From Candidatus Aminicenantes bacterium (GTDB lineage Bacteria > Acidobacteriota > Aminicenantia > Aminicenantales > JAFGBC01), in contig OY969696.1 of NCBI GenBank assembly GCA_963702005.1, positions 1,056,001 through 1,120,000 of the forward strand: a stretch of 64,000 nt of DNA, given 5' to 3'. Positions 26,063 to 64,000 of the stretch are shown here, in pieces. The notes under the pieces are model-generated. The model worked only from the letters and a program-made list of their open reading frames with translations. It was not told the DNA's origin and did no database searches. The stretch's first letter is position 1. Every line of letters begins with the position of its first letter. A program made the position numbers and the translations under genes.

Positions 26063-27016
26063 ATGACCCGTTCGCCGACGCCGAACCGCGCTTCTCAAGG
26101 CGGGGGTGATCCGCGAGGCTCAGGGTCGATCCTGAACAAGACCCCGCCTTCAGGCCGGGGTGTCGAGGATCTGACGATCCGGACGATGCGCAAGGCGGAC
26201 CTCGATTTCGCGGCCGCGTCGACCGTAATCGAGAACTGGCCGAGCGAAACACGCGAGGCATTCGAAGGCTTCCTCGCCCACGATCCGGACGGCTGCTTCG
26301 TCGCCGAACGGGACGGGCGCCCGGCCGGAATCTGCGTTGCCACCGCCTATGAGAGCTCCGGTTTCATAGGCGAGCTCATCGTCCGCAAGGAAGCGCGGGG
26401 ACGGGGTATCGGACCGCGGCTCTTAGACCATGCCGTCCGCTATTTAAAGGACCGGGGCGCCGCGGCCATCGGCCTCGACGCTGTCGAAAGGGCCGTTCCC
26501 TTCTACGAGAACTCCGGCTTCCGCAAGGTCTGCCGTTCCCTCAGGTTCCTGGGAAAAATCAAAGGCCGGCCGCATCCCGCCTTGAGATCGATGCGCCGGG
26601 AAGACCTGGATGAGATCCGCCGCCTCGACCGGGACGCTTTCGGTGACGACCGGAGCTTTTTCCTGGAGCGCCGACTGATTCTCTATCCTCGATTCGCGAA
26701 GGTCATGGAGCAGGCCGGCCGGATCGAGGGCTTCATCCTGGGCATCCGGGGCCGGGGCCTCGTAGCCGCGGGACCTTGGGTCGTGCGCGCTAATGTCGAA
26801 ACCCCCTTAGCGCTCCTCGAAGGACTGGCTCTCGAGACCGAAGGCCTTCCGATCCGGATAGGACTCCTCGAGACGAACGCGCGTGCGGCCGCGGCGCTGA
26901 ACCTCCTCCCGGGTCTTCAAAGCAGGCAGCCGAGCTGGCGCATGGTCCTGGGAAGCGGCGAACATCTCGGGGACACCCCTCTGTGCTGGGCCGTCGGCTC
27001 TCCGGCCAAGGGCTGA
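26063..27016 (+). CDS. Tandem GNAT acetyltransferase (YitH-like) with an in-frame repeat insertion after Met-Thr
   Basis: ARGRGIG acetyl-CoA motif, FYENSGF and DRDAFGDDRS, C-terminal SPAKG. The ORF-track extension to 25592 is a shadow of the upstream gene. Confidence 0.82.
   Translation: MTRSPTPNRASQGGGDPRGSGSILNKTPPSGRGVEDLTIRTMRKADLDFAAASTVIENWPSETREAFEGFLAHDPDGCFVAERDGRPAGICVATAYESSGFIGELIVRKEARGRGIGPRLLDHAVRYLKDRGAAAIGLDAVERAVPFYENSGFRKVCRSLRFLGKIKGRPHPALRSMRREDLDEIRRLDRDAFGDDRSFFLERRLILYPRFAKVMEQAGRIEGFILGIRGRGLVAAGPWVVRANVETPLALLEGLALETEGLPIRIGLLETNARAAAALNLLPGLQSRQPSWRMVLGSGEHLGDTPLCWAVGSPAKG
26064..26175 (+). mobile_element. TGAC-bounded palindromic element family B, copy 1
   Basis: TGAC-CCGTTCGCCGACGCC...GGCTCAGGGT...GAACAAGACCCCG...CGGGGTGTCGAGGATC-TGAC, with TGAC direct repeats 108 bp apart. 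Confidence 0.8.
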
Positions 27017-27046
27017 GCGAAGGGCCGGCCGACGCTCCGGCTCCTA

Positions 27047-29365
27047 TTACTTTTTCTTTTGGAGCGAGGATTCCAGCTCCCGGCCTTTCCGGGCGCATTC
27101 CTCGGACAGGGCGTCGTTGCCGGTCCGGTTATAGAGGTCCGCGAGCAGAAAATAGCCGAGAGGGAGGTCCGGCTTGTCCGGCTTGAGCTCCAATCCCTTC
27201 TTGACGAGGGCGATCGCTTCTTCATAGTTCTGCCCCCGGTTGAGGTCGATCCGGGCCAGATATAAATAGCTCAGCGGAAATTCCGGATTGGCCTCGACCG
27301 TCTTCTTGAGCGTCTGAAGCTCGTCCTCCTCCCGGTCCATGGTCCGGTAGAGGCGGGACAGGTTGAAAAGCGCTTTGTAGCTTTTCGGCGCGTCCCGGAT
27401 CTCCTGGAGGTAGTAATCGACGGCCTCGGGAAGCCGGTTCTGCTTTTCCCGGAGCTGGGCCATGTTGTAGCGAAGGCTCATCAGCCGGGGGTTGATGGCC
27501 AGGGCGGCCTGGAGGTGTTCCTCGGCCCGGGCGAGGTCGTCCCGGTTGAGATAGATCGCGGCCAGGGCGTTGTGGGCCGAGGCCGATTGGGGATTCTGGG
27601 ACAGGCATTGATCGAAATAGACGATGGCCTTGTCGTAGGCTCTGCGGTGGACGTTGAGGTTGCCCAGCAAGAGGGTCAGCTGGGGATCGCCGAACCCCTT
27701 CTTGATGTGGTCGAGGACGAAGCCCTCGGCCTCGTCGTAGCGACCCATGGCTTGGTAGCTGTTGGCGATGTTGATGACGGCGAAGGAATCGTCCGGCTTG
27801 AGGTCGAGGGCCTTGCCGAAGGCCGCGACGGCCTCCTGGAACCTCCGTTCCTTGTAGAGGATGTTGCCCAGGGCGAAGTGGGCGTCGCTGATGTCAGGGT
27901 CCGCGGCGATGATCTTCTGGATCATCGGAATCGCCTCCGCGGCGTTCCCGCTCAGCCCCATCTCCCGGGCCTTGGAGAGGTCGTTAAAGACGCCGATTTT
28001 ATCCCGCGGATTGGCGAGCCTCTTTCCCTTGAGCTTGGCCGAATCCGAGAAAGAGCCGATGTAGCCGAGGGCGGCCAGCTTCTGACGGGTCTCCTCGTCG
28101 ATCGTGCGGACGTCGACCTCGAAGGCGTTCCGGCCGGCCGCCTCGAGGAAGGCGCCGGCCCGGGCGTTGAGGTCTTCGAAGATGCGCTTCTGGAGGTAGA
28201 CGAGATTTTTGGCTTCGCCGGGGTCCCGGTCGAGGTCGTAAAGCTCGGGGACGGGGGCGATGATGAGCTTGAAACGATTGTCCTGTACGCTTCTAAGCTC
28301 CGACCAGCCGTAATGGTAGCGGGGGTAGAATGTCTCGGAGTAGGCGAGACGGTCTCCGCCGGCCCGGGGGCTGAAGAACGAAGGGACGAGGCTCGTCCCC
28401 TGGACCTCGGGCGGAACCGCGGTCCCGGTCATCTCGCAGACGGTCGGCAGGATATCGGCCAGGCTGACCATGGCCGGAGACACGACCCCCCGGAGCCGCC
28501 GGAACGGCGTGACGATAATGAGCGGGACATGGATCGCGCCCTGATAGACGAAAAAGCCGTGAGTGCCCTCGTCGTGTTCGCCCAGGCTCTCGCCGTGGTC
28601 GGAGGCAAAGACGAGGAACAGGTCATCGAGGAGGGCGGACTGGCCGAGATACGCCCAGAGGCGGGCCAACTGGCTGTCGGCGAAAGCGATCTCGCCGAGG
28701 TAGGGATGGTGGGCGTATTCCGTTTTATAAGGTTCGGGCGGCTCATAGGGCGTGTGGGGGTCGTAGAGGTGGATCCAGGCGAAAAACCGGCCGCCCTTGT
28801 TCGCCTTGAGCCAGGTCAGGGCTTCGTCCATGGTCTCGTTGCCCGGCCTCTGAACCTCGCCCAGGGAGATTTTCTCGAAACGGCTGAGGTCGAACTTGTC
28901 GAAGTAATAATCGAAGCCCTGGTTGAGCCCCCACTTGGAATCGAGGACGTAAGCGGAGACGAAGGCCGCCGTCGCGTAGCCCTTGGCCTTGAAGAGCTCG
29001 GCCAGGGTCGTGAGCTCCGCCGGGACGATGAAGCCGCCGTTGTCGCGGACGCCGTGCCGGGTGGGCAAGGTGCCCGTCATGATCGTCGTGTGGGAGGGAA
29101 GGGTCAAGGGCGTCTGGGACATGCAGCGTTCGAAACGGATGCCGCGGCGAGCCCAGAGGTCCATGGTCGGGGTCTCGACCCGGCTCTTCCCGTAGCAGCC
29201 GACCTTGTCCGCCCGCAGGGTATCAACGGTGATGAGGATGACGTTGAAGTCCTTGCCCGCCCGGAGGCGGCGGAAGTCGGCCCGGCGGAGGAACAGAAAA
29301 GCGCCGACGGCGGCGACGATCAAGGCCGCGGCCAGCGCGGCCGGGAGAACGAAACGGCGTTTCAT
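27047..29365 (-). CDS. Sulfatase-fold (alkaline phosphatase superfamily) hydrolase with C-terminal TPR repeats
   Basis: ITVDTLRAD, TPLTLPSH, HLYDPH, SDHGE, LAALGY, then multiple TPRs. N-terminal membrane anchor. Confidence 0.88.
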   Translation of the reverse strand: MKRRFVLPAALAAALIVAAVGAFLFLRRADFRRLRAGKDFNVILITVDTLRADKVGCYGKSRVETPTMDLWARRGIRFERCMSQTPLTLPSHTTIMTGTLPTRHGVRDNGGFIVPAELTTLAELFKAKGYATAAFVSAYVLDSKWGLNQGFDYYFDKFDLSRFEKISLGEVQRPGNETMDEALTWLKANKGGRFFAWIHLYDPHTPYEPPEPYKTEYAHHPYLGEIAFADSQLARLWAYLGQSALLDDLFLVFASDHGESLGEHDEGTHGFFVYQGAIHVPLIIVTPFRRLRGVVSPAMVSLADILPTVCEMTGTAVPPEVQGTSLVPSFFSPRAGGDRLAYSETFYPRYHYGWSELRSVQDNRFKLIIAPVPELYDLDRDPGEAKNLVYLQKRIFEDLNARAGAFLEAAGRNAFEVDVRTIDEETRQKLAALGYIGSFSDSAKLKGKRLANPRDKIGVFNDLSKAREMGLSGNAAEAIPMIQKIIAADPDISDAHFALGNILYKERRFQEAVAAFGKALDLKPDDSFAVINIANSYQAMGRYDEAEGFVLDHIKKGFGDPQLTLLLGNLNVHRRAYDKAIVYFDQCLSQNPQSASAHNALAAIYLNRDDLARAEEHLQAALAINPRLMSLRYNMAQLREKQNRLPEAVDYYLQEIRDAPKSYKALFNLSRLYRTMDREEDELQTLKKTVEANPEFPLSYLYLARIDLNRGQNYEEAIALVKKGLELKPDKPDLPLGYFLLADLYNRTGNDALSEECARKGRELESSLQKKK

Positions 29366-29396
29366 CGGAACCTATTTTACCACAGCCTTCGCGGAC

Positions 29397-29428
29397 AAAA
29401 AAAAGGGCGGCGGGCCGTCCCGCCGCCC
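29397..29428 (-). terminator. Intrinsic terminator after the TonB-dependent receptor
   Basis: 10-bp GC stem (GGGCGGCGGG/CCCGCCGCCC) followed by T8 on the minus strand. Confidence 0.85.
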
Positions 29429-29454
29429 CGTGAGAATCCGCGTTCGCGCGGCCC

Positions 29455-32220
29455 TCAGAACATCAGCCGGAGGCCGAGCCGGGCTCGTCTGGGGAGGTCG
29501 ATCCCGTAGAGCTCGTGCCCGTTGGTGGAGGTGTCGCTGCCGTCAAAATAATAGTCGTAGCCCGCCCGCGTTCCCCAGCTGTAGATCGAGTCGGCGTTGA
29601 ACACGTTGAAAACGTCGAGGATGATCCCCAGCCGGTATTTGGAGGCCAGGGTGAACGTCTTTTCCAGCCTCACATCGAGCTGCTTGTCCATCGGGTAGTG
29701 GTTGGATCCGCGCTGCTCGGCGAAGAAGGTGACCCGGCCTTGGGCCAGCCGGCTCGACCGGACCCGCGTCGTCCAAGCGTCGCCGGAGATGGCGTGGAAG
29801 TAGGCGTTGAAGGAGATGTCGAAGGGCAGGACGTAGGTTCCCTGGATCTTGATCATGTGGGTCGGATCGTTCGTCGAGTGGCCCTCGCCGTTGATGAAGA
29901 AGTTGGGGTTGTAGATGTAGTTGTCGCTCGACAGGGCGCCGTAGCCGATGTCGTCCGAGGAGCCGTTGTCCAGAGTCCCGAAGGCCCGCGAATAGACGTA
30001 GGAGGCGAGGAGCTGCCAGCGGTTCGAGAAGCGTTTGTTGAAGAGGATCTCCAGGCCCCGGTAGTTGCGGTAGACATCCACCGGAATTCCGTTCCGGCCC
30101 TTATAGATGTTTCCGATCCAGAAGTCGTGGGTGTCTCCCGAGGTCAGTTCGTAGATCGTGAAGTTCTTGTCGAGGGCCTTGTTGTAGATATCGACGGGCT
30201 CCCAGGTGGCCAGATTGTCCCACGATCCGACCGGATTTTTCCAGCGGCGGTCGATGTAGGTCACCGAGAGCGAGGTGTCCTTGAAGAGTTCTCGCTCGAC
30301 GCCGAGCGTGAATTGGCTCAGGTAGGGATGCTTGATATTGGCGTCGATCTGCCAGGTTCCGTGGGTGATCCGGTTGTACTCGACCCACTCCGAAGACCCG
30401 AGGTCCCAGTAGTAAGAGATTTTGTCGGAGAATCCGGGGTTGATGCGGTCGAAGAAATACGCGTACATGGCCTCGGTGAACTGGCCGTAGTGGGCCTTGA
30501 GGACCGTGGATTTGTCGCCGAAGACGTCAAAGGTCAATCCGAGGCGGGGCGCGATCCGGTTCGTGTTCCAGGGAGTCCCGGACACACCCGCGACGGTCCC
30601 CCAGTTCTGGCTGAAGCGGGCGCCGATGTTGAGGTTGAGCCGCTGGCTGACCTGCCAGGAATCCTGGGCGAACGCCTCGAGCCGGACGAACCGCGTATCC
30701 AAGTTATAGCCCGCATACTGGGTGGCCAGGTAGTTGCCGGTATAACCATAGTACCAGTAGTCGGTGTAGTACCAGTGATTGGCCCCGGTATAGCCGTAGA
30801 CGTCGCGGACGATCGAGCGCTCGAACTCGGCCCCGAACTTGAATTCGTGGTTGCCCTGGATGAAGTTTTCCGCATAGTGGGTCAGGCTGGCGTTAATCTG
30901 GTAGCGGGTCCGGGGATGGTCGGCGTAGTATCCGGAGCTGAAGTGCCGCTTGTTGCCGCTTCCCGGCAGGCCGGGCGCGTCGCTCTGGAAGAAGTGGCCG
31001 GCGACATCCCGGCCGGACCGCGGCTCCAGGGTGTAGGTGCCGTCGAAGTAAGCGCCCTTGACGTCGAAGAACGTCTGCGGGTTGAAGATGTGGGTCAGGT
31101 TGAAGTTGAGGACCCACTCGGGCCCGGTCTGGTCGACGGTAGCCTCGGGAAGGACCGTGGAGCTTCCGCCGCGGTGGGTGCCGCGATAGTCGTCCCGTTC
31201 GACCGAAAAGGTCAGGTTCGTTTTGGCGGTGAGCTGAGAGGTCAGCTTCAGGAATCCGCGGGGTTGCTTGTAGTCAATGGCTACGGGGAAGCCGGTCGGG
31301 TAGTCCCAGGACCGGTACCACTGCGCCCCGCCATAGAACCAAAGCTTGTCCCGCAGGATGGGTCCGCCCAGCTGGGCATTGCCGTCCATGAGCTTCTCGA
31401 GCGGGGCGGTGATCGCCGGGAAGTCCGTGCTGTAAGTGCTGTTGTTGGTCGTCTGCCACAGCCCCTTCGGGCTGTCGTTTTGTTTGCCCTGGAAGAGGAA
31501 TTCAATATGGCCGGAAAATTCGTTCCCCCCGGACTTCGTGATGAGGTTGAAGATGACGCCCGTGAAACCCCCGTACTCGGCGGGCAAGCCGACGCCCATG
31601 ACCTTGGCTTCCTCGATGATGTTGTGATCGAGGAAGACCCAGGCCGTCCCTCCGGCCGGGTCGCCGACGCCGACTCCATCCATTTGCCAGGAAACGCCCG
31701 TTCCCGAGGACGCTCCGTAGGCGACGTCGTTGTTGACGCCCGGCGCCAGGTTGACGATGTCCGAAGTGAACTGGCTGTAGGGAATATTCCGGAGAATTTC
31801 GTTGCTCAGGGTGACCGATGCCGTTTCCGTCGATTTGACATCGACCGTAGGCGAGGTGGCGATGACGGTGATCTGCTCCGCGACCGTCGCCAGGGTCATG
31901 ACGACATCTACGGTCAGGGTGACCGTCGTCGTCATTCGGATGTTTTCCTGGACGGATGTGGCGAACCCCTGAAGTTCGGCCTTAAGGCTGTAAACGCCCG
32001 GCGGAAGGGCGGGGAAGCGGAACTGCCCGCTTGGATCGCTGACGGTCGATCGCGCGCCCATCAGGTTGGGGCTGGTCAGGGTCAGGTTCACGCCCGGAAG
32101 CGGATTTCCCTGATCGTCGGCCACCCGGCCCTGGACGGCGCCGGTCTCCCGCGATTGGGCGAAGACGAGCGGAGACGCCAGGAGAGTCACAAGGACTGCG
32201 CAAATGAGCGTTTTTCTCAT
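29455..32220 (-). CDS. TonB-dependent receptor (carboxypeptidase-regulatory-like N-domain, Oar-like)
   Basis: Signal peptide, G.V.D..G.PLPGV, PAEYGGFTG...NLITKSGGN plug, APRLGLTFD, C-terminal RLGLRLMF. Confidence 0.9.
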   Translation of the reverse strand: MRKTLICAVLVTLLASPLVFAQSRETGAVQGRVADDQGNPLPGVNLTLTSPNLMGARSTVSDPSGQFRFPALPPGVYSLKAELQGFATSVQENIRMTTTVTLTVDVVMTLATVAEQITVIATSPTVDVKSTETASVTLSNEILRNIPYSQFTSDIVNLAPGVNNDVAYGASSGTGVSWQMDGVGVGDPAGGTAWVFLDHNIIEEAKVMGVGLPAEYGGFTGVIFNLITKSGGNEFSGHIEFLFQGKQNDSPKGLWQTTNNSTYSTDFPAITAPLEKLMDGNAQLGGPILRDKLWFYGGAQWYRSWDYPTGFPVAIDYKQPRGFLKLTSQLTAKTNLTFSVERDDYRGTHRGGSSTVLPEATVDQTGPEWVLNFNLTHIFNPQTFFDVKGAYFDGTYTLEPRSGRDVAGHFFQSDAPGLPGSGNKRHFSSGYYADHPRTRYQINASLTHYAENFIQGNHEFKFGAEFERSIVRDVYGYTGANHWYYTDYWYYGYTGNYLATQYAGYNLDTRFVRLEAFAQDSWQVSQRLNLNIGARFSQNWGTVAGVSGTPWNTNRIAPRLGLTFDVFGDKSTVLKAHYGQFTEAMYAYFFDRINPGFSDKISYYWDLGSSEWVEYNRITHGTWQIDANIKHPYLSQFTLGVERELFKDTSLSVTYIDRRWKNPVGSWDNLATWEPVDIYNKALDKNFTIYELTSGDTHDFWIGNIYKGRNGIPVDVYRNYRGLEILFNKRFSNRWQLLASYVYSRAFGTLDNGSSDDIGYGALSSDNYIYNPNFFINGEGHSTNDPTHMIKIQGTYVLPFDISFNAYFHAISGDAWTTRVRSSRLAQGRVTFFAEQRGSNHYPMDKQLDVRLEKTFTLASKYRLGIILDVFNVFNADSIYSWGTRAGYDYYFDGSDTSTNGHELYGIDLPRRARLGLRLMF

Positions 32221-32466
32221 TTATCCCTCCATTTGAGATTCCCAAAACCCGGTTGCCAAGGACTCCGCAATTTCGTTTTCTCCCAGGCTCACCTCCTTCA
32301 GAGAAAGAAGAAAGAGATATCGCGTCGCGGTTCTCCTGAATGGGGAAATGGCCTTTAGAGGCCGGGGTTTAGTACATAAGCCATCCTGCTTATCTGGCGA
32401 TGGCGGTCTCTCCGAATACTGGTGACCACTTTGGTGAGATTATTATCCGAAATACGGGAGGTCTTT

Positions 32467-32619
32467 GTCAACCCCTCGACTCCCCGGCATGAATGCCGGG
32501 GCTTGTTCGGGGTTAACCCTGAGCCGAGCTTCTCGTCCCCGCCTTTCAGGGGCGGCACACACGAACCGTTCCCGGTTCGTGCGTACTGCAAGGCTGGGTA
32601 GCGTCGGCGAACGGGTCAA
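32467..32619 (-). mobile_element. TGAC-bounded palindromic element family B, copy 2 (longest)
   Basis: Minus strand reads TTGAC-CCGTTCGCCGACGC...GGCTCAGGGTTAACCCCGAACAAGCCCCGGCATTCATGCCGGGGAGTCGAGGGG-TTGAC, with repeats 148 bp apart. Confidence 0.82.
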
Positions 32620-32627
32620 GTCGGCCG

Positions 32628-33776
32628 TCAGCGGAGGCGTTCCCAGCCGACAAGGTATTTCAGGAGACGGCCCGCGTCGACGGTCACGCCCAAGCCCGGG
32701 CCGGCCGGGACGGCGATGAATCCGTCGGAATCGAGCATGACCGGCGGGTCGGCGATATCTTCGCTGAAGTAGTTGCAGGTTTCCGACGTGTCGCCCGGGA
32801 GGTTGAACTCCTCCACCGTCTGGAGATGGATGTTGACGGCGCGCCCGATCCCGGTCTCGTCCATCCCGCCCGACCAGACGCCGAGACCGTGATCCGCGGC
32901 GAAGCGTGCGATCCGGATCGATTCCAGGAGCCCGCCGACGCGCCCCTGCTTGATGTTGATGATCCGGCAGGCGCCCAGGGCGACGGCCGCGGCCGCGTCG
33001 TCGAGGCCGTGTATGGATTCGTCGAGGCAGATCGGGGTGGCGATCTCCTTCTGGAGGATGGCGTGTTGATGGATGTCGTTATAGGACAGCGGTTGTTCGA
33101 TCATCATCAAGCCGAAGGCGTCCAGCCGCTTGAGGCGAGCGGCGTCCGCGAGCGTGTAGTCGCCGTTGGCGTCGACCATGAGCCGGAGGTCGGGAAAACG
33201 CTCCCGGACGGCGGCGACCCACTCGGCGTCCTGTCCTTTCTTGACCTTCATTTTGACCCGGTGGTATTTCTTGGCGACCGCCTCGGCGACGGCGCTTATC
33301 AGCTCGGCCTGCGTGTCTTTGAGCCCGATAGAGATGCCCGACATGATTTTGCGGGCCGGCCGGCCGAGAAGCTGATGGAGGGGGATTCCTTTTTTTAGCG
33401 CCGTCAGGATGGCCAGGCCGTTTTCAACCGTGGCCTTGGCCATTCCGTTGCCGCGGACGGGGCGGAACGCCAGGTCGAGGTCGCCGAAAGTCATCCCGGA
33501 CTCGATCGCGGGCAGCAGGAAATCCTTGATGATGGGACGGCAGGTCCCGGTCGTTTCCTGGAAATAATAGGGATCGGGGTCGGCGACGCACTCGCTCCAG
33601 GCGACGACGCCCTCCGATTCGAGGCGCATAAGGAGGGCTTCCTTGTGGGTCCAGACGTGGACGCTCGTCCCGAACGGAGTGACGAACGGCAGCCTGACCA
33701 CGACCAGGTCGATGTGGTCCGGGATCGCGACGGCCTGCTTCTCAAGAGACGGGATCGAGGACGGTACCCCGTTCAT
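32628..33776 (-). CDS. o-succinylbenzoate synthase / N-acylamino acid racemase family enolase
   Basis: KMK, DAN, EQP, LDES, INIK and GDTS motifs. AAGGAGG RBS before ATG 33776. No other men genes nearby. Confidence 0.85.
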   Translation of the reverse strand: MNGVPSSIPSLEKQAVAIPDHIDLVVVRLPFVTPFGTSVHVWTHKEALLMRLESEGVVAWSECVADPDPYYFQETTGTCRPIIKDFLLPAIESGMTFGDLDLAFRPVRGNGMAKATVENGLAILTALKKGIPLHQLLGRPARKIMSGISIGLKDTQAELISAVAEAVAKKYHRVKMKVKKGQDAEWVAAVRERFPDLRLMVDANGDYTLADAARLKRLDAFGLMMIEQPLSYNDIHQHAILQKEIATPICLDESIHGLDDAAAAVALGACRIINIKQGRVGGLLESIRIARFAADHGLGVWSGGMDETGIGRAVNIHLQTVEEFNLPGDTSETCNYFSEDIADPPVMLDSDGFIAVPAGPGLGVTVDAGRLLKYLVGWERLR

Positions 33777-33786
33777 GGGCTCCTCC

Positions 33787-35103
33787 TTAATAATAATACC
33801 CGCCCGGGCTGCCGGGGCCGCCGAATCCGCCGCCGAAGCGGGGGTTGACGACATTGCTATAGACGGACCCGAAGCTGTAGCTGAAGCCTACGGCCAGGAA
33901 ATAACTGTAGTCCGTGGCGAGCTCCTTGCGCCGCAGCAGGAGATCGTCGAGGCTGACCTCGCTCTTGCGGAGGGCCAGCTGGTCGTGGACGGCGGCGTAG
34001 CGTCCGTCCACGGTCAAGGCCAACCCCTTGAGAATCCTGAGCGACAGGCTGGCCGAGAGCCGAAGCCGGTTATAGCCGAAGTCGTGAAAATAGTGGGACC
34101 CCTCGGCCGAGATCTCGGCGTTCCCCCAGGGTTCGGTGAAGGACAGGGTCGCGGTCAGAATCTCGCTGAACACCGTTTGGGACAGCTTATCGTAGATGGT
34201 CTCCTCGAGATACTTGTTGTAGGAGACGGCGACGCGGTAGAGGAAGCGCAGCTGGCGCCGGGTCGCGTCGGAGTAGGGGAAGACGTCGTACTCAAGGGCC
34301 GGGGCGAGGCTGAACCCGGTCGCGATGTTGCTGTAGGTCGAATAGCTGAGGTTCGCGGTGCCGCCGGCCGACCAGTGATCGCCCAGGCTCCGGACGTAGA
34401 GCCCGTCCAACGACCGGGAGCGGGAGGAGCTTTCCTCTTTATAACCCTCGTAATCGAATTTGCTCTCGTCATAGCTCCCCGAGACTCCCAGGCGAAACTT
34501 GGAGGCGGGCGTCACCCGGCTGATGGAGACGTTGCCGTTGAGCGAGTTGTACTTGCGCGTCATTTCGCCGTTGAGCCGCCCGCGGGCGCTGAAGCTGAAC
34601 ACCCAAAAATCCCACTTGTCCACGACCGCCGTCGGCTTGAGGGTCCGTTCAGTGTTGAGGGACAGGATCCGGGAGATCGGCGTCCGGGCCGCGTAGGGGG
34701 CCAGCCCCAACTTCAGGATCTGGACCATGCCCTTCCGGATCTCGTCATCGGTTTCGGTGCGGTTCGAGTAGAACTTGAGCTCGTTGTTCAGGCTGGCGTA
34801 GCTTCCCAGCCCGATGAAGGCGATCGTGTATTCCCGGCCGCCGCCGCCGGTTCTCTGCTGGGTGATCAGGACGTGGACGTCGGCCTCGTTGCGGTCCCAG
34901 ACGTAGTTGACGAAGGTGATCTCGGTCCGGATATAGTCGATGTCGATGCGGCCGCCGTCGAGGAACACCTTGGGCGCGGCTTTCTTGAGGGCGTCCATTT
35001 CCTGGGCGTTGATTTCCTTCTTGACGTCGGTCGCGGCCGGAGAGGAGGTGGCCGCTGCTATGGAAAAAGCCGTAAGGAGGGCATAAACGGTTGCGCGCTT
35101 CAC
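33787..35103 (-). CDS. Putative outer-membrane beta-barrel protein
   Basis: Signal peptide from GTG 35103 (AAGGAG RBS), alternating amphipathic strands, C-terminal SYSFGSVYSNVVNPRF. Confidence 0.6.
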   Translation of the reverse strand: MKRATVYALLTAFSIAAATSSPAATDVKKEINAQEMDALKKAAPKVFLDGGRIDIDYIRTEITFVNYVWDRNEADVHVLITQQRTGGGGREYTIAFIGLGSYASLNNELKFYSNRTETDDEIRKGMVQILKLGLAPYAARTPISRILSLNTERTLKPTAVVDKWDFWVFSFSARGRLNGEMTRKYNSLNGNVSISRVTPASKFRLGVSGSYDESKFDYEGYKEESSSRSRSLDGLYVRSLGDHWSAGGTANLSYSTYSNIATGFSLAPALEYDVFPYSDATRRQLRFLYRVAVSYNKYLEETIYDKLSQTVFSEILTATLSFTEPWGNAEISAEGSHYFHDFGYNRLRLSASLSLRILKGLALTVDGRYAAVHDQLALRKSEVSLDDLLLRRKELATDYSYFLAVGFSYSFGSVYSNVVNPRFGGGFGGPGSPGGYYY

Positions 35104-35429: not shown

Positions 35430-36689
35430 ATGACAAAAAATCTATCTTTAAGAAACAATATATTTTGGGCATTGGTGGCGAACGGCATTAACGCCGCTTT
35501 CAGCTGGCTGATGCTCATGGCACTGACTAAGGCTGCAGATGTCAACGTCGTTGGGCTTTTCGCTTTAGCCCAAGCTGTAGCTTTGCCGATTCACACGTTT
35601 TTTACGTTCAAGCTTAGAGTTGTCCAATCAACGGACCATTTGGCCGAATTTTCTGATGATGAATATAGAAATTTCCGCATTTTTTCGGGAATTTTGAATT
35701 TCCTAGCAGCCGCTTTAATTACGCTGCTTCTTTATCGAGGAGGGACTCTCACGGTCATTTTAATTACGTCCCTTGGATACTCTTTCGTCATTTACAGGGA
35801 ATTTTATATATCGCTCCTACAAAAGCATGAAAGAAATGACTTGATTTCCTTCTCCAATTTAGTCCAAGGGTTGAGCGCCCTCGCTTTTTTACTCATCGGC
35901 TACTTAGTGACGAAAGATCTCAGGGGGGGGATAGTAGGTATTTTAGCGGCTCGAGCTTTTTTTACGATTACTGTCGACCGACGCCTCTCGGCTAAGTATG
36001 CTTCTTGGGGAAAAGTAACATGTTCCGACAGCGTTGGTAATCGGGAATATCGAAAAAGACTTTTAAAATTATTCCATGTGGGCCTTCCGATGGGAGGAGT
36101 AGCTCTGTTAGGAACCCTTTTTACCAGTATCCCGAGACTCGTTCTTGATAAAGCCGTGGATAGGTATAGTGTCGGTATCTATGCGGCGCTCGCTTCTTTG
36201 ATTGTCGTGATGAATCTTTTTGTCAATTCGCTTGGGCAATCAATAGCGCCGAGATTAGCGCGGATTTATCATGAAAACCGCAGCGATTTCCAAAAAAAAA
36301 TAATCGGCCTCTTATCGGCAAGTATAATCTTTATCATCGGTTGGATCGCCGTTTGTTCCCTTTTCGGGAGAACGTTGCTCTCCGTGATATTTAAGCCGGA
36401 ATACGCAGACTATAATCCGACTTTTATCAAATTGATGGTTGCCGGCGGTATACTTGCCCTTTTCTCAATTATGATCATCGCCGTTTCCGCTCAGCGATCT
36501 TTTAAAATCCAGTTTGGCATCTATCTCGTTAGCACAATAGTTTTGCTCATGACGTCGATTGTATTAATTCCTAGGTATAAAATCGACGGCGCGGTTTATT
36601 CCTTCGCTCTATGCAATCTATCCGGGCTTATCTTAAGTTCTGTCGTTTTTATTCGGAATATGAGACAAGAAGTCGTGGGTCATGTATAG
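35430..36689 (+). CDS. wzx: Polysaccharide flippase
   Basis: About 12 hydrophobic segments and MATE/Wzx-like motifs (VVGLFALAQA, IPRLVLD...VGIYAA). First gene of the locus. Confidence 0.85.
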   Translation: MTKNLSLRNNIFWALVANGINAAFSWLMLMALTKAADVNVVGLFALAQAVALPIHTFFTFKLRVVQSTDHLAEFSDDEYRNFRIFSGILNFLAAALITLLLYRGGTLTVILITSLGYSFVIYREFYISLLQKHERNDLISFSNLVQGLSALAFLLIGYLVTKDLRGGIVGILAARAFFTITVDRRLSAKYASWGKVTCSDSVGNREYRKRLLKLFHVGLPMGGVALLGTLFTSIPRLVLDKAVDRYSVGIYAALASLIVVMNLFVNSLGQSIAPRLARIYHENRSDFQKKIIGLLSASIIFIIGWIAVCSLFGRTLLSVIFKPEYADYNPTFIKLMVAGGILALFSIMIIAVSAQRSFKIQFGIYLVSTIVLLMTSIVLIPRYKIDGAVYSFALCNLSGLILSSVVFIRNMRQEVVGHV

Positions 36690-37230
36690 CGATATCTGCG
36701 AGGATTATCGGGCTTATTCAAAAAATAATGCTTCCTTTCTAAGAATTGTACTAGCTTTTCTACAAATTGCCGGCTTCCGAGCAAGCGTATTGTACCGACT
36801 TGGCCACCGGCATTGGGTGAAAAAGCACAGGCTGCGCGCGGCTGTTTATACGCGGATGATCCGTGGTTCATGCCACATGGATATCGAACTGGGTGCAAGG
36901 ATCGGTCCCGGTATCTGTTTCCCTCACACGTGGGGGATTGTCATCGGGGGCAAATGCATAGTCGGAAAAAATTGCCGAATCATGCAGGGAGTAACTTTGG
37001 GGGGAAGCCTGGGTAGAAAGAGACCAAGTGGACAAAGCCAGCCCGTCATAGGTGATCTTGTACACATCGGTCCGGGTGCTAAAGTGATGGGCCCGATTAA
37101 TGTGGGGGATAGGGCGAAAATTGGGCCAAATTCTGTCGTTCTAGAAAACGTTCCGCCGGGAATTTCAGTATTTGGGATTCCAGCGAAAAACATTTTTTCA
37201 TTATGTACAGAAATAGAGGAAGCTGAGTGA
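36682..37230 (+). CDS. CysE/WcaB-like hexapeptide O-acetyltransferase
   Basis: GARIGPGICFPH, IMQGVTLGG and IGPNSVV left-handed beta-helix repeats. Confidence 0.85.
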   Translation: MYSDICEDYRAYSKNNASFLRIVLAFLQIAGFRASVLYRLGHRHWVKKHRLRAAVYTRMIRGSCHMDIELGARIGPGICFPHTWGIVIGGKCIVGKNCRIMQGVTLGGSLGRKRPSGQSQPVIGDLVHIGPGAKVMGPINVGDRAKIGPNSVVLENVPPGISVFGIPAKNIFSLCTEIEEAE

Positions 37231-37374
37231 AGGGCGGATTTTATATGGCGGAGAAACGCATTTTTTTCATTTGCTGGGTTCGATTAAATCTCCCACGTTA
37301 GGCAACCTTAATAATTCAAGAGCATTGAAGAGCATGCTTAGGAAGGTGCATATCCTAGCTTCAGGAGAATCTGA

Positions 37375-40869: not shown

Positions 40870-41004
40870 ATAAATTTCTGAATATTTCGTTATCGATACT
40901 TGATAAATGAAATTTTAGGTTGTTTTTAGAACGGTGATTATAATTAAACAAATAAAATATTCCGTTTTTTGAGCGGCAATTAATAAATAGTTGAAAAATG
41001 GGCC

Positions 41005-49122: not shown

Positions 49123-49143
49123 CCCTAAATACATGCAAGGCAG

Positions 49144-50046: not shown

Positions 50047-50058
50047 GAGAGGATCGCG

Positions 50059-58946: not shown

Positions 58947-59029
58947 TTGACCCGTTCGCCGACGCCACCCAGCCTTGCAGTACTCAGACTAAGCCGAAAA
59001 CGGCTTAGTCTGGGTGTCGATGATTTGAC
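58947..59029 (+). mobile_element. TGAC-bounded palindromic element family B, copy 3 (short variant)
   Basis: TTGAC-CCGTTCGCCGACGCCACCCAGCCTTGCAGTAC-hairpin-GTGTCGATGAT-TTGAC, with repeats 78 bp apart. Confidence 0.8.
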
Positions 59030-59054
59030 AAGCCGGCTCGCGCCGCGGTATTCT
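59025..59054 (+). promoter_or_regulatory. sigma70-like promoter whose -35 box is the right junction of element B copy 3
   Basis: TTGACA-N18-TATTCT. Confidence 0.6.
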
Positions 59055-59148: not shown

Positions 59149-61413
59149 ATGGATCAACACCGAAAGCGGTTTCTTGGATTGTTTCTGATCGGATTCATTC
59201 TTTCCGCAGCCGTCGCTCGGCCAGACCAGGCCCTGACCTGGAGCCGGATCGGCAAAGGCGGCCTGGACGGACCGTATAACCCGCTTCAGGAGGATCTGAA
59301 CGCCGCCTGCCTGTTCGGCGGCAAGCTCTGCGTCGGAACCTGGGGCGGCCAGATTTGGAGCTATGACGGAAGCGAGTGGGTTCTGATCCACAAGCCCAAG
59401 CCGGGCAAGAACCTCATCCGGGAAGTGCAATCCCTGGCCGTCCTCGGGGATTACCTCTATGCCGGCATGTACCTGAGCAATCAAACCTGCCAGGTTTGGC
59501 GGACCAGCGGCACGGGGAAGCTTCCCTATCGATGGACGAAAGTCAGCGGCGCCGCGAATATCGAAAATTCCGAGGCTCATGAAGCGCCTTCAATGGCTGT
59601 CGTCAAAGGGGTTCTTTATGTCGGTACAGAGGGCTATTACGGCTGCCAGGTCTGGTCGTACAACGGCAGCGCTTGGACCGAGGTTGTCGGGCAAGGTTCC
59701 GCCGGCTCGGCCACCGGTCCCGGCTTCGGCGACAAAGCGAATTACGTGGCGAGCTCCATGACTTCATCCGCGTCGGGCGATCTTTATGTCGGCACGGGCC
59801 GGCATGACGGAGGCGAGGTCTGGCGGCTGAACAGCTCGGGCTGGGCCATGGTCAACAAGCCCGGCTTCGGGGTCTCTTCTAATTTCCGTATCCAAACCCT
59901 GGCCTTCTTCAACGACAGCCTCTATGGGGGCACCATCAATGATGAGAAGGGCGCCCAGGTCTGGAAATACGTCGGGCCCGGCCCGTCGAATTGGAAGGCG
60001 GTCGGGCTCAACGGAATGGGCGATGTCAAGAACAGGCTCGTCGCCTCCGCGGCCGTCTTCGGGGACCCCGCCCGACTGTATGTGATTACGGATAACGGAG
60101 AACGAGGCTGTCAGGTTTTGAGGACGAACGGGAAGACCTGGGAGAAGGCCAACGCGAACGGATTTGGAGAGGGTCCGACCAATTGCATAGGCGGGTTCCT
60201 GGCCGTCTTCAGGGGGAAACTCACCGCCGGCTTGGACAGCGATTTCGGCGGCCGGGTCTACGCGACGGCCGGCGGCGCCAAGGTCCCCTTCGCCTGGACG
60301 CAGGTGAACGACTCCGGTTTCACCCGGAACGACAACGAACTGTTCGGGGCCGCGGCCTTCTTTGGCGGAAAGCTTTATGTCGGGACCCATAACTCCCTGG
60401 GCTGCGAAGTCTGGCGTTACGAAGGGAACGGCTGGACCCAGGTCGCGACGGGCGGGTTCGGCGATCCCTACAACGATAGCGTGTGGTCCATGGCCGTCGC
60501 CAACGGCTATCTCTACGCCGGCGCCGAGAATTGGGAGACGGGGGCCGAGATCTGGCGCTACGACGGGTCGAAATGGACCCAGGCCAACAAGAGCGGGTTC
60601 GGGGACGCCTCGTCGGGAATGGCCAGCGCCATGGCCGTCCACCAGAACAAGCTCTACGTGGGGACGCGGAACTATGACCACGGTGCTACGATTTGGCGTT
60701 GCGACGGTCTCAAAACATCCCAATGGACGAAGGTCAACACGAACGGCTTCGGCGTTTTGGCGACGATCGGAATCCAGTCCTTGGCCGTCTTCAGTAATAA
60801 GCTCTATGCCGGGACCCTGGACGAGAGCGGCCGCTGCCGGGTCTGGAGGTACGACGGCCCCGGGCCGTCCGGGTGGACGGCGGCGAACGAGGCGGGGTTC
60901 GGCGTCGATAGCAACTATGCCGCGTCCGGCCTGGCCGTTTATACGGGGGCGCTCTATGCGGAGACTTGGACCGAGGGCAACGGCGGTTGCGAGGTGTGGC
61001 GCTACTCCGGCGCCGGTACGGCCTGGAGCCAGGTCAACGTCGGCGGCTTCGGGAAAGCCGCCAATGAATATGCGGATTCCATGATCGTCTTCAAAAATCT
61101 CATGTATGTCGGCACCTGGAACGAGTCGAACGGGGGCGAGATCTGGTCTTACGACGGCAGCGTCTGGAGCCAGGTCAATAAATCCGGATTCGGGGCCAAC
61201 ACCAACATCGGGATCGAATCGATCGCCAGCGATGGGACCGATCTTTACGCCGGGACCGAGAATGACTTCACCGGCGGCGAGGTCTGGACGACCGGGACCG
61301 GGAGCGCGAGCCCCCCGATCTTCCGGGCGGCTCCGTTCCCGTCGATCCCGCGAGTGCATCGGAGGCATCCGAGAGAAGCCTCCCAGCCGAGGCTTCATTC
61401 CCGGACGCGGTAG
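59149..61413 (+). CDS. Secreted beta-propeller repeat protein
   Basis: Signal peptide and about 14 repeats of W.QVN..GFG...N....MAVF..KLYVGT.N...G.EVWRYDG. GGGAGG RBS. Confidence 0.8.
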   Translation: MDQHRKRFLGLFLIGFILSAAVARPDQALTWSRIGKGGLDGPYNPLQEDLNAACLFGGKLCVGTWGGQIWSYDGSEWVLIHKPKPGKNLIREVQSLAVLGDYLYAGMYLSNQTCQVWRTSGTGKLPYRWTKVSGAANIENSEAHEAPSMAVVKGVLYVGTEGYYGCQVWSYNGSAWTEVVGQGSAGSATGPGFGDKANYVASSMTSSASGDLYVGTGRHDGGEVWRLNSSGWAMVNKPGFGVSSNFRIQTLAFFNDSLYGGTINDEKGAQVWKYVGPGPSNWKAVGLNGMGDVKNRLVASAAVFGDPARLYVITDNGERGCQVLRTNGKTWEKANANGFGEGPTNCIGGFLAVFRGKLTAGLDSDFGGRVYATAGGAKVPFAWTQVNDSGFTRNDNELFGAAAFFGGKLYVGTHNSLGCEVWRYEGNGWTQVATGGFGDPYNDSVWSMAVANGYLYAGAENWETGAEIWRYDGSKWTQANKSGFGDASSGMASAMAVHQNKLYVGTRNYDHGATIWRCDGLKTSQWTKVNTNGFGVLATIGIQSLAVFSNKLYAGTLDESGRCRVWRYDGPGPSGWTAANEAGFGVDSNYAASGLAVYTGALYAETWTEGNGGCEVWRYSGAGTAWSQVNVGGFGKAANEYADSMIVFKNLMYVGTWNESNGGEIWSYDGSVWSQVNKSGFGANTNIGIESIASDGTDLYAGTENDFTGGEVWTTGTGSASPPIFRAAPFPSIPRVHRRHPREASQPRLHSRTR

Positions 61414-61528: not shown

Positions 61529-61618
61529 CGGCGTATAGAATTATCATAATCCCCGGATAGGCGCCGAGATCCGCGAATTTTTGTCGTGGCCCGGGCAAGG
61601 GGGAGGAAGGGAGATTTC

Positions 61619-63898
61619 GTGAACAAGCATGGCAAGGCGTTATTGGCGTCTTTGTTTGTCGCGGCGATTTTGACCGCGGCGGCCTTCGCCGACGAGGCCC
61701 TGACCTGGAGCCGGATCGGTAAAGGCGGCCTGGACGGGCCGTATAATTATCTCCAGTATGGCCTCAACGCCCCCTGCGTTTTCAAGGGGGCTCTTTATGT
61801 CGGCACCGGCGGCGGCATGTCGTTCGGCGGCCAAATCTGGCGCTATGACGGGCACGAGTGGGTCATGGTCCATAAGCCCAAGCCGGGCCATACGCGAATT
61901 GACGCGGTGACGACTCTGGCCGTCCTCGGCGATTATCTCTATGGGGGCATGTCTGTCAACGACGGGACCTGCGAGGTCTGGCGTACCGACGGGACGGGGA
62001 AGCCCCCCTATCGCTGGACCAAGATCAGCGCGCCGGCGAACATCAGCCAGCAATATACGTACATGGTGAGTTCGATGACCGTCGTCAACGGATATCTGTA
62101 CTGCGGCACCTGGAACAACGTGAAGGCTTGTCAGGTCTGGAAATACAGCGGAAGCGCCTGGACCCAGGTCGTCGGGCAAGGCCCCTCGGGATCGCCCACC
62201 GGCCCGGGCTTCGGCAATAAGAATAACTACGTGGCGCGGTCCATGACCTCTTCGGCCTCGGGAGATCTTTATGTCGGGACGGGCAACAGCGGGGGCGGCG
62301 AGGTCTGGCGGCTGACGAGCTCCGGCTGGACCAAGCTCAACAAGCCCGGATTCGGCGCGTCCAAGAACTCCTACATCAGCGTCCTTATCTTCTTCAAGAA
62401 CAGCCTCTATGCGGGCACCCAGAATTACACTAAGGGCGCCCAGGTCTGGAAATATTTGGGGCCGGGCCCCGCGAACTGGAAGGCGATCGGGCTCAACGGG
62501 ATGGGCGACGCCAACAATTATAATATCGGCGCGGCGGCGGTCTTCGGAAACCCGGGCTGGCTGTATATCATCACCGCGAACTATGAAAACGGCTGCCAGG
62601 TCCTGAGGACCAACGGAACGAAATGGGAGAAGGCCAACGCAAACGGGTTCGGGGAGGGGAAGACCAACGGGGATGGCGGCGCCCTGGCTGTCTTTGACGG
62701 CAAGCTCTATGCCGGATTGAACGGCGATTTCGGCAGCCGGGTCTACGCGACCGCGGGCGGCGCCAAGGTGCCGTTCGCCTGGACGCTGACGAATGATTCC
62801 GGATTCAGCCTGAACGACAACGAAAGGATCGGCTGCTCGGCGTTCTTCGGCGGAAAGCTCTACGTCGGGACCTATAACGGCCTGGGCTGCGAAATCTGGC
62901 GCTATGAGGGGAACGCCTGGACCCAGGTCGTCTCGGGCGGGTTTGGAGATCCTAATAATTATGAAGCCGAGTCCATGGCCGTCGCGGACGGCTATCTTTA
63001 CGTCGGGACCGGCAACTGGCTGACCGGCGCCGAGGTCTGGCGCTATGACGGGTCGAAGTGGACCCAGGCCAACAAGGACGGATTCGGAGACGCGACATCG
63101 GGTGAAGCCGCGGCAATGATCGTTCACCAGGACAAACTCTACGTTGGCACGCAGAGCTATAACACCAAGGCCAAGGTTTGGAGATGCGACGGCCTCAAGA
63201 CGACCCAATGGACGAAGGTCAACACCAACGGCTTCGGCATGGCCACCACGGTGGGCGCGATATCGTTCGCCGTCTTAAACAACAAGCTTTACGCCGGGAC
63301 CTACGATATGAACGATCCCTGCCACGCTTGGAGGTATGACGGCCCCGGGCCGTCGAACTGGACGCTGGTCAGCGCGGAGGGGTTCGGAAACAAGGCAAAC
63401 CACGGAGTGGACGCGCTGGCCGTCTATAAGGACGCCCTCTACGCGAGCGTCTACTCCGCCGATCAGACAGGCTGCCAAATCTGGCGCTATTCGGGCAACG
63501 GAACGAGCTGGAGCCGGGTCAACGTCAGCGGTTTCGGCAAGGCCAACAACGGTATGGCGGACGCCATGATCGTCTTTAAAAATCTTCTGTACGTCGGCAC
63601 CTGGAACGGGGTGAACGGGGGAGAAATCTGGTCCTACGACGGCGGCGTCTGGAGCCAGGCCAATAAGAGCGGCTTCGGGACCAATAATAATTACGGAGTC
63701 CTCACTCTGGCGGGCGACGGCGCCGATCTTTACGCCGGCACCGTGAACGACATGACCGGCGGCGAGGTCTGGACGACCGGGGCGGGGAGCGACAGCCCCC
63801 TGATCCTCCGGGCCAACCCATTCCCGTCGTTCCCGAAAGCTCATCGGAAGTACCCGAAGGAAGCCTACCAGTCGAGATTTCATTCCCGGACGCGATAG
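61619..63898 (+). CDS. Secreted beta-propeller repeat protein (tandem paralogue of 59149..61413)
   Basis: Colinear with the upstream paralogue from ALTWSRIGKGGLDGPYN to HSRTR. GTG start after GGGAG. Confidence 0.8.
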   Translation: MNKHGKALLASLFVAAILTAAAFADEALTWSRIGKGGLDGPYNYLQYGLNAPCVFKGALYVGTGGGMSFGGQIWRYDGHEWVMVHKPKPGHTRIDAVTTLAVLGDYLYGGMSVNDGTCEVWRTDGTGKPPYRWTKISAPANISQQYTYMVSSMTVVNGYLYCGTWNNVKACQVWKYSGSAWTQVVGQGPSGSPTGPGFGNKNNYVARSMTSSASGDLYVGTGNSGGGEVWRLTSSGWTKLNKPGFGASKNSYISVLIFFKNSLYAGTQNYTKGAQVWKYLGPGPANWKAIGLNGMGDANNYNIGAAAVFGNPGWLYIITANYENGCQVLRTNGTKWEKANANGFGEGKTNGDGGALAVFDGKLYAGLNGDFGSRVYATAGGAKVPFAWTLTNDSGFSLNDNERIGCSAFFGGKLYVGTYNGLGCEIWRYEGNAWTQVVSGGFGDPNNYEAESMAVADGYLYVGTGNWLTGAEVWRYDGSKWTQANKDGFGDATSGEAAAMIVHQDKLYVGTQSYNTKAKVWRCDGLKTTQWTKVNTNGFGMATTVGAISFAVLNNKLYAGTYDMNDPCHAWRYDGPGPSNWTLVSAEGFGNKANHGVDALAVYKDALYASVYSADQTGCQIWRYSGNGTSWSRVNVSGFGKANNGMADAMIVFKNLLYVGTWNGVNGGEIWSYDGGVWSQANKSGFGTNNNYGVLTLAGDGADLYAGTVNDMTGGEVWTTGAGSDSPLILRANPFPSFPKAHRKYPKEAYQSRFHSRTR

Positions 63899-63918
63899 CC
63901 CGGCCTCTTCGGAAGCCC

Positions 63919-64000
63919 TTGACCCGTTCGCCGACGCCAAGCCCCGCCTTTCAAGGCGGGGATGAGAGCGAGGCTCAGGGTTAATCATGAACAAGCCCCG
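63919..64000 (+). mobile_element. TGAC-bounded palindromic element family B, copy 4 (truncated by window end)
   Basis: TTGAC-CCGTTCGCCGACGCCAAGCCCCGCCTTTCAAGGCGGGG...GGCTCAGGGTTAATCATGAACAAGCCCCG. Confidence 0.8.

Follow-up and report, generated by a model that had tools for sequence, protein, structure and literature searches.

A TTGAC-bounded hairpin repeat in Aminicenantes-type genomes, probably a gene-less IS200/IS605-like element linked to promoters

What kind of sequence is a short non-coding repeat that lies between unrelated genes, begins each time with the same arm, and has TGAC at both of its junctions? The question is raised by a stretch of 64,000 nucleotides of contig OY969696.1 from Candidatus Aminicenantes bacterium (positions 1,056,001 to 1,120,000), which as a whole is called the window here and which holds four copies of such a repeat, the TTGAC element. 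We put a probability of about 0.7 on the reading that this is a gene-less element similar to IS200/IS605, of the PATE (palindrome-associated transposable element) or REP (repetitive extragenic palindromic) kind, most likely moved in trans by an HUH/Y1 transposase that is encoded elsewhere. The anatomy of the element, the pattern in which its parts can pair, its link to promoters, and its spread within and between genomes are read directly from the copies.

The TGAC starts of the four window copies are at 26064 (+), 32618 (-), 58948 (+), and 63920 (+), and the copies extend as follows.

26063-26175, plus strand: copy 1, complete but degenerate, 113 nt, delimited by sequence and by ungapped alignment to the canonical copy
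32467-32619, minus strand: copy 2, 153 nt, with the left TTGAC at 32619-32615 and a middle TTAAC at 32516-32512
58947-59029, plus strand: copy 3, an 83-nt deletion form in which a nested REP-like hairpin stands between the left arm and the right tail GTCGATGATTTGAC
63919-64000, plus strand: copy 4, which meets the window end, with TTGAC at 63919-63923 and the first hairpin at 63942-63961

The 18-mer TGACCCGTTCGCCGACGC at the left end occurs exactly four times in the window, even when up to three mismatches are allowed, whereas shuffled sequences contain it 0.10 times on average and reached four in none of 100 cases. Three copies share GGCTCAGGGT-N7-GAACAAG, a number also attained by 0 of 100 shuffles, and GTCGA-N5-TGAC closes all three complete copies, with TGAC-to-TGAC distances of 108, 148, and 78 nt. 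A preliminary description of the window had proposed the four copies, these unit lengths and ends, the shared block with GAACAAG, and hairpins of the type CCCCG..CGGGG; all of these were found again at the same places, and the shuffles speak against chance for the copies and for the block.

The same description had called for a genome-wide search for copies. We scanned a species-representative genome collection with the 18-mer and obtained at least 110 loci (labeled L below), 30 of which have only 300 nt of flank. By their downstream signature, at least 60 matches in at least 59 loci belong to the family, so that at least 60 further copies exist in 10 Aminicenantes-type metagenome-assembled genomes (MAGs). 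The family matches listed fall in eight assemblies of Candidatus Aminicenantes/Aminicenantia and two of “uncultured Eubacteriales,” and the remaining 51 listed matches are isolated, lie in unrelated GC-rich sequence of other taxa, and were taken as chance. All family counts below refer to the 64 copies among the matches listed, the four of the window included, or to the 50 of them in which both ends are present (complete copies). As the left 18 nt served as the search key, constancy of the left end outside the window is by construction, and variant left ends are unsampled.

Fifteen of the 50 complete copies are 113 nt long, and the others range from 58 to 326 nt. The canonical 113-nt copy (locus L035, positions 600-712) is organized as follows, in its own numbering.

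1-5: TTGAC
6-19: constant arm CCGTTCGCCGACGC (14 nt)
20-23: TAAG
24-43: first hairpin CCCCGCC-TTTCAA-GGCGGGG, then a tail ending GGGTTAAC (to 68)
69-74: short arm CCCGAA
75-78: CAAG
79-98: second hairpin CCCCGGC-ATTCAT-GCCGGGG, then the tail ACTCGAGGGG
109-113: TTGAC

The order of the unit is therefore TTGAC, arm, TAAG, hairpin, tail, TTAAC, arm, CAAG, hairpin, tail, and TTGAC. Its two halves are homologous to each other (NAAG, CCCCGSC hairpin, AC, CGAGG, GGGTT, RAC), and the two hairpins stand in direct orientation (AAG-CCCCGCC-TTTCAA-GGCGGGG-AC and AAG-CCCCGGC-ATTCAT-GCCGGGG-AC), with their feet 18 nt past the left TTGAC and 11 nt ahead of the right TGAC. No convincing terminal inverted repeat is present, as the preliminary description had stated; the best match found by eye is 6/9, between CCGTTCGCC and the complement of GTCGAGGGG.

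As a single strand, the canonical copy folds into two extended imperfect hairpins that include the pairings ACCC(4-7):GGGT(61-64) and AACCCC(66-71):GGGGTT(105-110). The fold has an energy of -32.1 kcal/mol and a z score of -5.41, and 0 of 200 shuffles folded as well. Copies 2 (150 of its 153 nt) and 3 reach z scores of -4.62 and -4.42, and the single-stranded DNA fold of copy 1 is no better than that of shuffles (z -0.76). Copy 1, which aligns with the canonical copy without gaps and differs from it at 27 of 94 positions (searched left end excluded), is an old copy. Its second closing stem differs in sequence yet pairs (GATCC with GGATC). The middle AATCAT of copy 4 is complementary to the right tail ATGATT of copy 3, an indirect match, as two different copies are involved.

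This layout resembles that of IS608 and of the IS200/IS605 family, which likewise lack terminal inverted repeats and possess direct subterminal hairpins, a flank motif, and a similar end motif. According to the excerpted text of PMC3201880, the left cut of IS608 falls 3′ of a TTAC placed 19 nt 5′ of the left hairpin foot, and its right cut 3′ of a TCAA placed 10 nt 3′ of the right hairpin foot; the corresponding spacings in the TTGAC element are 18 and 11. In IS608, the tetranucleotide just 5′ of each foot acts as the guide (left AAAG, right GAAT), and the two guides pair with the cut motifs through A+16/T-3 and A+17/T-4 and, at the right end, through C-3/G-35 and T-4/A-34, whereas A-2 is unpaired and two bases 3′ of the foot add triplets (PMC3201880 and PMC5934647, both in excerpt). 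We applied this code to the TTGAC element, taking g1:c-3, g2:c-4, and an unpaired c-2 from these excerpts (g, guide; c, cleavage motif) and deducing g4:c-1 from the two IS608 guide/site pairs.

Applied to TGAC, the code predicts CAAG as the guide of the right end. By manual count, 33 of the 50 complete copies indeed have CAAG at a distance of 0-1 nt from the last hairpin, and three have TAAG there; in 14 of the 50, the region before the last hairpin is replaced by nested modules or deletions. For the middle TAAC the predicted guide is TAAG, which is the commonest first guide (23/64) and which also fits the TGAC of the left flank with one T.G pair. The base 3′ of both hairpin feet is A, like at both ends of IS608. 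In the window, the parts in question lie at the following positions.

26064-26067, plus strand: left TGAC of copy 1, with the flank motif ATGAC
26082-26085, plus strand: guide 1 of copy 1, CGAA, the 4 nt 5′ of the first hairpin (26086-26105)
26126-26130, plus strand: middle motif of copy 1, TCGAT (canonical TTAAC)
26137-26140, plus strand: guide 2 of copy 1, CAAG, 5′ of the second hairpin (26141-26161)
26171-26175, plus strand: right-end motif of copy 1, CTGAC
32482-32505, minus strand: guide 2 of copy 2, CAAG (32505-32502), and second hairpin (32501-32482)
63938-63941, plus strand: guide 1 of copy 4, CAAG
63981-63985, plus strand: middle motif of copy 4, TTAAT
63992-63995, plus strand: guide 2 of copy 4, CAAG

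The degenerate copy 1 combines the guide CGAA with the middle CGAT, which amounts to three compensatory double changes relative to the canonical TAAG/TAAC: column pair 20/66 changes from T:A to C:G, 21/65 from A:T to G:C, and 23/68 from G:C to A:T, and columns 22 and 67 stay A. To judge from their positions, the columns changed would not be linked by a plain antiparallel helix. A second two-sided change, at g4:c-1, is seen in a nested relative of the element (described below), which pairs the guide GATT with the end TCAA in L088 and the guide GATC with the end TCAG in L061, L106, L090, and L045. The preliminary description had suggested a non-autonomous, hairpin-guided, TGAC-specific element mobilized in trans, and both the hairpin layout and the guide pairing with its compensatory changes support that suggestion. 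It had not noted the build from two units, the link to -35 boxes, or the occurrence of the family across Aminicenantes-type MAGs.

We therefore favor a mechanism in which two homologous hairpin units on the same strand would each use a 4-nt guide just 5′ of the hairpin, and in which each guide would pair with the tetranucleotide that closes its unit (TAAG/TAAC for the middle, CAAG/TGAC for the right end). The element would be placed 3′ of a host TTGAC and, as it ends in TTGAC itself, would be left with TTGAC on both sides after insertion. Movement would presumably depend on an HUH/Y1 enzyme, pass through a single-strand circle, and place the element 3′ of TTGAC rather than duplicate 4 bp.

The junctions bear on this last point. 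Whereas the preliminary description had drawn the boundary at (T)TGAC, TGAC stands and the left motif can be refined to TTGAC, which is found in three of the four window copies; T precedes the left TGAC in 58 of the 64 family copies, compared with 9 of the 51 chance matches. Further to the left, no position is conserved. Of the 50 complete copies, 48 terminate in TTGAC on the right and the other two in TTGAT and CTGAC, and the base that follows the element is A in 20 and T in 25 of the 50. The left fifth base is A or G in L032, L042, L066, L077, and window copy 1, and the right motif differs from it in all five; a 5-bp duplication is unlikely because the fifth base is discordant between left and right in 5/5 informative copies. 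Two origins of the flanking repeat had been considered originally, a duplication of 4-5 bp and identical left and right cleavage sites. Identical cleavage motifs fit better than the 5-bp variant of the duplication.

Could the element instead be a miniature inverted-repeat transposable element (MITE) of a DDE transposase that prefers TGAC or TTGAC and duplicates 4 bp? TGAC is present at both junctions in 49 of the 50 complete copies, the ends share the weak inverted match mentioned above, and other MITE-like repeats with TA junctions are found in the same genomes. We nevertheless hold this to be improbable, as a real terminal inverted repeat is lacking and the hairpins are direct, and as pairing of guide and motif with compensatory changes has no role in DDE transposition. 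The nested relative where it stands alone, with AATCAA on its left and TTCAG on its right, also speaks against it.

A closer competitor in chemistry is a system of the type formed by REPs and RAYTs (REP-associated tyrosine transposases), in which each hairpin with its 5′ guide would be a substrate in its own right, the enzyme a single-copy and possibly domesticated Y1 protein (a RAYT or a class 3 TnpA-Y1), and the 113-nt unit a composite like a BIME (bacterial interspersed mosaic element). The two units indeed share one build, in which each has a separate guide and downstream motif; L041, L055, and L081 are 58-nt forms with a single hairpin; in one MAG, the left end consists of an inverted and a direct guide-hairpin, reminiscent of a REP doublet; and many other REP-like hairpins are nested in the copies. 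The rare class 3 Y1 genes occur mainly in Planctomycetes, Acidobacteria, and Proteobacteria, with atypical hairpins that have a 5′ tetranucleotide foot and that reach up to ∼600 copies in one acidobacterial genome (PMC6006769, in excerpt). Such a system is a variant of the same chemistry as the IS200/IS605 reading, but we consider it unlikely here. The outer boundaries of the TTGAC element are fixed, with TTGAC on either side, and its left arm is constant, features that the excerpt of that paper does not ascribe to REPs; its feet are NAAG rather than GT[AG]G or the CnGA given there for class 3; its main hairpins are direct rather than inverted; and no Y1 or RAYT gene was seen in the window or the scanned flanks.

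Several observations weigh against the IS200/IS605-like reading that we prefer. No transposase was recognized by Pfam among the 70 long open reading frames (ORFs) of the window, which bears out the preliminary description in that none is encoded there, and no Y1/HUH, TnpB, or other transposase was detected by Pfam among 79 ORFs from the family flanks. The opposite strand of the canonical copy folds about equally well (z -4.79 versus -5.41). About 28 of the 64 copies carry GCTA (or GCCA) before the first hairpin; most of them come from one MAG, but window copies 2 and 3 are among them. GCTA as a left guide fits neither TGAC nor TAAC, yet it is a multi-copy form. In the MAG rich in GCTA, the left end is often an inverted guide-plus-hairpin followed by a direct one, and a deletion between these would seem to have produced the simple GCTA form. 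Copy 4 and two QNF170220 copies combine CAAG with a middle TAAT or TAAC, a mismatch at g1, although their CAAG fits the left-flank TGAC perfectly. The compensatory evidence comes from a small number of independent events, namely copy 1, the contrast of unit 1 with unit 2, and the two forms of the nested element, and G.T versus A.C mismatches fail as a test of the strand, as decayed stems show both T.G and C.A. Four copies on one 1.95-Mb contig run -, -, +, +, too few to be telling and confounded with gene direction.

The junctions taken alone are compatible with a 4-bp duplication of TGAC. Neither DNA nor translated comparisons (all loci against the window, left flanks among themselves) yielded an orthologous site with or without the element, and insertion as such is thus deduced rather than seen in an empty site. 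The promoter of the Kelch-repeat paralogue (TTGACA at 61499) was considered as a paralogous empty site for copy 3, but the control failed: with the joined flanks of copy 3 as the query, the promoter at 25301-25500 scored 31, whereas the best local match of the region near 61499 was 15 nt. Because 25301-25500 matched better, the likeness between the copy 3 flank and 61499 is only that of the promoter consensus.

TTGAC is the core of the σ70 -35 hexamer and contains the stop codon TGA. An insertion would therefore rebuild a -35 box at the right end of the element and keep an overlapping stop codon at its left end, and the junctions fit both consequences. For the 49 copies that have 60 nt or more of right flank, we took the right TTGAC plus one base as the hexamer. 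TAnnnT follows at a spacer of 17 in 10 and at a spacer of 18 in 8 of the 49, whereas its summed count over 44 other offsets (outside 16-19) is 19. At least four of six matches to TATAAT at a spacer of 16-18 are found in 25 of 50 copies, one of which is too short to judge. Two promoter-like sites of this kind lie in the window.

32442-32471, minus strand: TTGACA at 32471-32466 (right TTGAC of copy 2 plus one flank base), 18-nt spacer, GATAAT
59025-59054, plus strand: TTGACA (right TTGAC of copy 3), 18-nt spacer, TATTCT, upstream of a Kelch-repeat gene, 10/12 matches

A promoter scanner picks out both sites independently; with 11/12 matches, the one at 32471-32442 is its best call in the region 25000-33000. 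A promoter directed into the element, with the left TTGAC as its -35 box, was likewise considered, but none of the four window copies has a -10 box at the right distance.

The orientation of neighboring genes points in the same direction. We scanned with Pfam 79 of the 103 listed flank ORFs, namely those from loci with 600-nt flanks. To the right of the element, 25 of 34 scanned ORFs are co-oriented with it and 9 are opposed, and all of the Pfam-supported ones are co-oriented (14/14); of the Pfam-matched ORFs to its left, 7 run toward the element and 8 away, one of these 8 below the cut-off. Twenty copies have an upstream flank with an open frame running toward the element, and in 8 of these the frame is stopped by the TGA of the left TTGAC. 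L015, L042, L050, and L061 are among the 8, L053 behaves alike with a shorter open frame, and all five upstream genes are Pfam-supported. In four of the five (L015, L050, L053, and L061), the target motif overlaps both a stop codon and the -35 box of the next gene, and at those junctions the left motif would keep the stop codon and the right motif the -35 box. Restoration of both signals would explain why copies are concentrated upstream of co-oriented genes.

How much of this association requires a preference for promoters? Among TTGAC sites of the window outside the element, TAnnnT follows at a spacer of 17-18 in 5 of 12 intergenic sites, compared with 5 of 118 coding sites. About half of the tolerated TTGAC sites are -35 boxes anyway. 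Since the rate at intergenic TTGAC equals that at the elements, the association with promoters needs only targeting of TTGAC and loss of insertions inside genes.

The strong fold and the position between genes also invite an explanation without movement, in which the repeat would be a structured cis-element or RNA kept by selection, such as a stabilizer of 3′ ends, an insulator, or a binding platform upstream of promoters. A co-oriented upstream gene immediately precedes it in 7 of 15 Pfam-supported cases, the gene that follows it is always co-oriented, and copies from different species differ at as few as 1-3 of 94 positions, whereas their flanks do not align. We regard this explanation as very improbable. 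The element lies upstream of the -35 box and hence outside the downstream transcript, its copies decay, lose parts, and carry nested insertions, and TTGAC on both sides as well as the guide code would be left unexplained. The comparison with Rfam that the preliminary description had asked for gave no match at gathering level over the whole window, and a search of six loci at E ≤ 1 returned only chance matches far below the cut-offs (microRNA models, HgcC, and a CRISPR repeat model). An intrinsic terminator was rejected because no T-run, and hence no U-tract, follows the hairpins in the three complete window copies.

The copies themselves carry signs of spreading. Identical 113-nt copies are present at unrelated loci of one genome (L035 and L083; L021 and L096), and the PFL55 113-nt copies have diagnostic bases of their genome, with G at position 46 in 4/5 and G at position 100 in 5/5. 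Internal deletion forms comprise the 58-nt forms, in which the left arm is joined to the last hairpin, a 72-nt form (L029), and the 83-nt window copy 3. Longer copies hold nested small hairpin modules, for which the loop of a hairpin or its 5′ half is a frequent site. Identical, diagnostic, decayed, deleted, and nested copies together form the pattern expected of a repeat that spreads within genomes. By Pfam, the genes flanking the listed copies are unrelated housekeeping genes with no common theme.

Tentatively, these strands can be joined. The element may be an HUH/Y1 mini-transposon whose target motif and whose own last bases are both TTGAC, and which would insert in promoters and overlapping stop codons and repair both. 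It might further consist of hairpin units strung together, each complete in itself with a guide and a cut motif (TTGAC, TTAAC, and a nested TTCAA), intermediate between REPs and IS200/IS605 ends and perhaps served by a class 3 Y1 of Acidobacteria. We consider this combined picture possible but doubtful. If it were true, the element would have a built-in harmlessness, and its copies would concentrate at promoters.

Among known systems, PATEs such as the PATE-like copies of Geobacillus stearothermophilus come close, as they are gene-less, present in multiple copies, and served by an enzyme in trans, and in the Geobacillus elements the flank motif is only slightly different from the end motif, and both covary with the guides (PMC10055086, in excerpt). 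In contrast to IS200/IS605 elements and PATEs, the TTGAC family has an identical flank and end motif that equals the -35 core, an internal TTAAC with a matching guide, and a large subfamily with a misfit left guide. REP/BIME elements (REPINs) and class 3 systems share its high intergenic copy number, its mosaic and nested clusters, and the enzyme encoded elsewhere, but in the excerpt of PMC6006769 they have GT[AG]G or CnGA feet and no fixed boundaries, where the TTGAC family has NAAG, constant ends, and a 14-nt arm. Three traits are particular to the family: the motif TTGAC, with what follows from it for promoters and stop codons; a third motif inside the element that has a guide to match; and how deeply copies are nested. 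We found no description of this repeat family or of TTGAC-targeting elements in the literature, and searches of the plasmid and phage collections gave no match to the canonical copy.

Two further comparisons concern repeats at gene borders. Integron attC sites carry the inverse core RYYYAAC and the core GTTRRRY as inverted repeats after cassette ORFs. The ends of the TTGAC element are direct TTGAC repeats, GTTGAC misfits GTTRRRY, and the flanks are housekeeping genes, so that an attC site was rejected. Correia elements of Neisseria are small, gene-less, gene-adjacent repeats that can supply parts of promoters, but they have long terminal inverted repeats and TA duplications, and their promoters arise by chance. 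The TTGAC family differs in that it restores the -35 box because target and end share the motif.

Other sequences are inserted into the copies. A nested relative with similar ends (TCCCCTTCGCGGGA ... GTGGAGCTTCAR) lies after TTCAA in the loop of the first hairpin in L007, L013, L014, L061, L088, L090, and L106 and itself contains further nested inserts; it stands alone once, after AATCAA in L045, ∼200 nt to the left of the main copy. REP-like modules with the constant head AGCCTTGCAGTAC and a following hairpin occur at 32556-32595 (-), at 58972-59015 (+), and in many loci, inserted in the 5′ half of CCCCGSC stems. Their stems vary between copies but stay complementary, with a CCG-GNAA-CGG tip. 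The module of copy 2 is placed as follows.

32556-32595, minus strand: nested REP-like module of copy 2, AGCCTTGCAGTAC followed by a perfect hairpin, within the 5′ half of hairpin 1

In L060, an insert with the inverted-repeat-like start TGTGTGGGGTCAGAC begins at ∼655 within the right end GGGG|TTGAC of a 58-nt-type copy, and its ORF reads by eye like the N terminus of an IS481/IS3-type transposase. It was rejected as the partner transposase, as it is a separate insertion into the right end of the element. Tandem right-end repeats stand directly 3′ of the element in L083 (400-450; GGGGTTGACTTA twice, then TGGTTGACA) and in L084 (400-460; TTTGACCCCGAAGA twice).

A different repeat of ∼107 nt, with the ends CTAAGCCGGGC and CTCCCCGTAG and TA junctions, is found at 25263-25369 of the window and in L014 (340-446), L061 (347-453), and L088 (408-461). 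In the window it stands alone, just upstream of a promoter-like site at 25403, whereas in the three loci it lies inside the GGGTTA|ACCCC middle of a TTGAC element, with 87-93% identity to the window copy; by its ends and junctions, it looks like a TA-targeting MITE. Near-perfect palindromes of ∼56 nt (GGAATTCTGGGGACA...) at 7189-7244 and 9746-9801, with a related third at 9890-9935, follow an H+-pyrophosphatase gene and a GH127 gene. They match L025 (1013-1067), from another MAG, at 89%, and constitute another dispersed hairpin family. The left flanks of L035 (221-447) and L106 (62-288), at unrelated loci of one MAG, share 227 nt in opposite orientation with 96.9% identity, which is probably a further repeat.

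As for the genes of the window, copy 1 lies between a 202-amino acid ORF (stop at 26054) and a GNAT acetyltransferase gene (ATG at 26186), and copy 2 between an enolase-superfamily gene (32628-33854, -) and an outer-membrane β-barrel gene (29455-32220, -). Copy 3 sits between divergent genes. The window also contains paralogous gene pairs for Ser/Thr kinases with TPR (12805-15948 and 16887-20027) and for Kelch-repeat proteins (59150-61413 and 61586-63898), as well as a large cluster for polysaccharide biosynthesis and export (∼35430-54508).

The family allows the IS608 guide/cleavage code to be tested on natural sequences from an uncultured and distant lineage, whose genome itself displays compensatory changes. 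It also illustrates how a mobile element can accumulate at promoters and leave them intact when its target motif coincides with the -35 core, a point that bears on the evolution of promoters and on the annotation of intergenic regions in Aminicenantes-type MAGs. TTGAC elements and nested repeats can fill whole intergenic regions there, and several short contigs end in or beside a copy. If the cognate Y1 enzyme, or a TnpB with a TTGAC adjacent motif, were found, the family would become a defined set of substrates for it.

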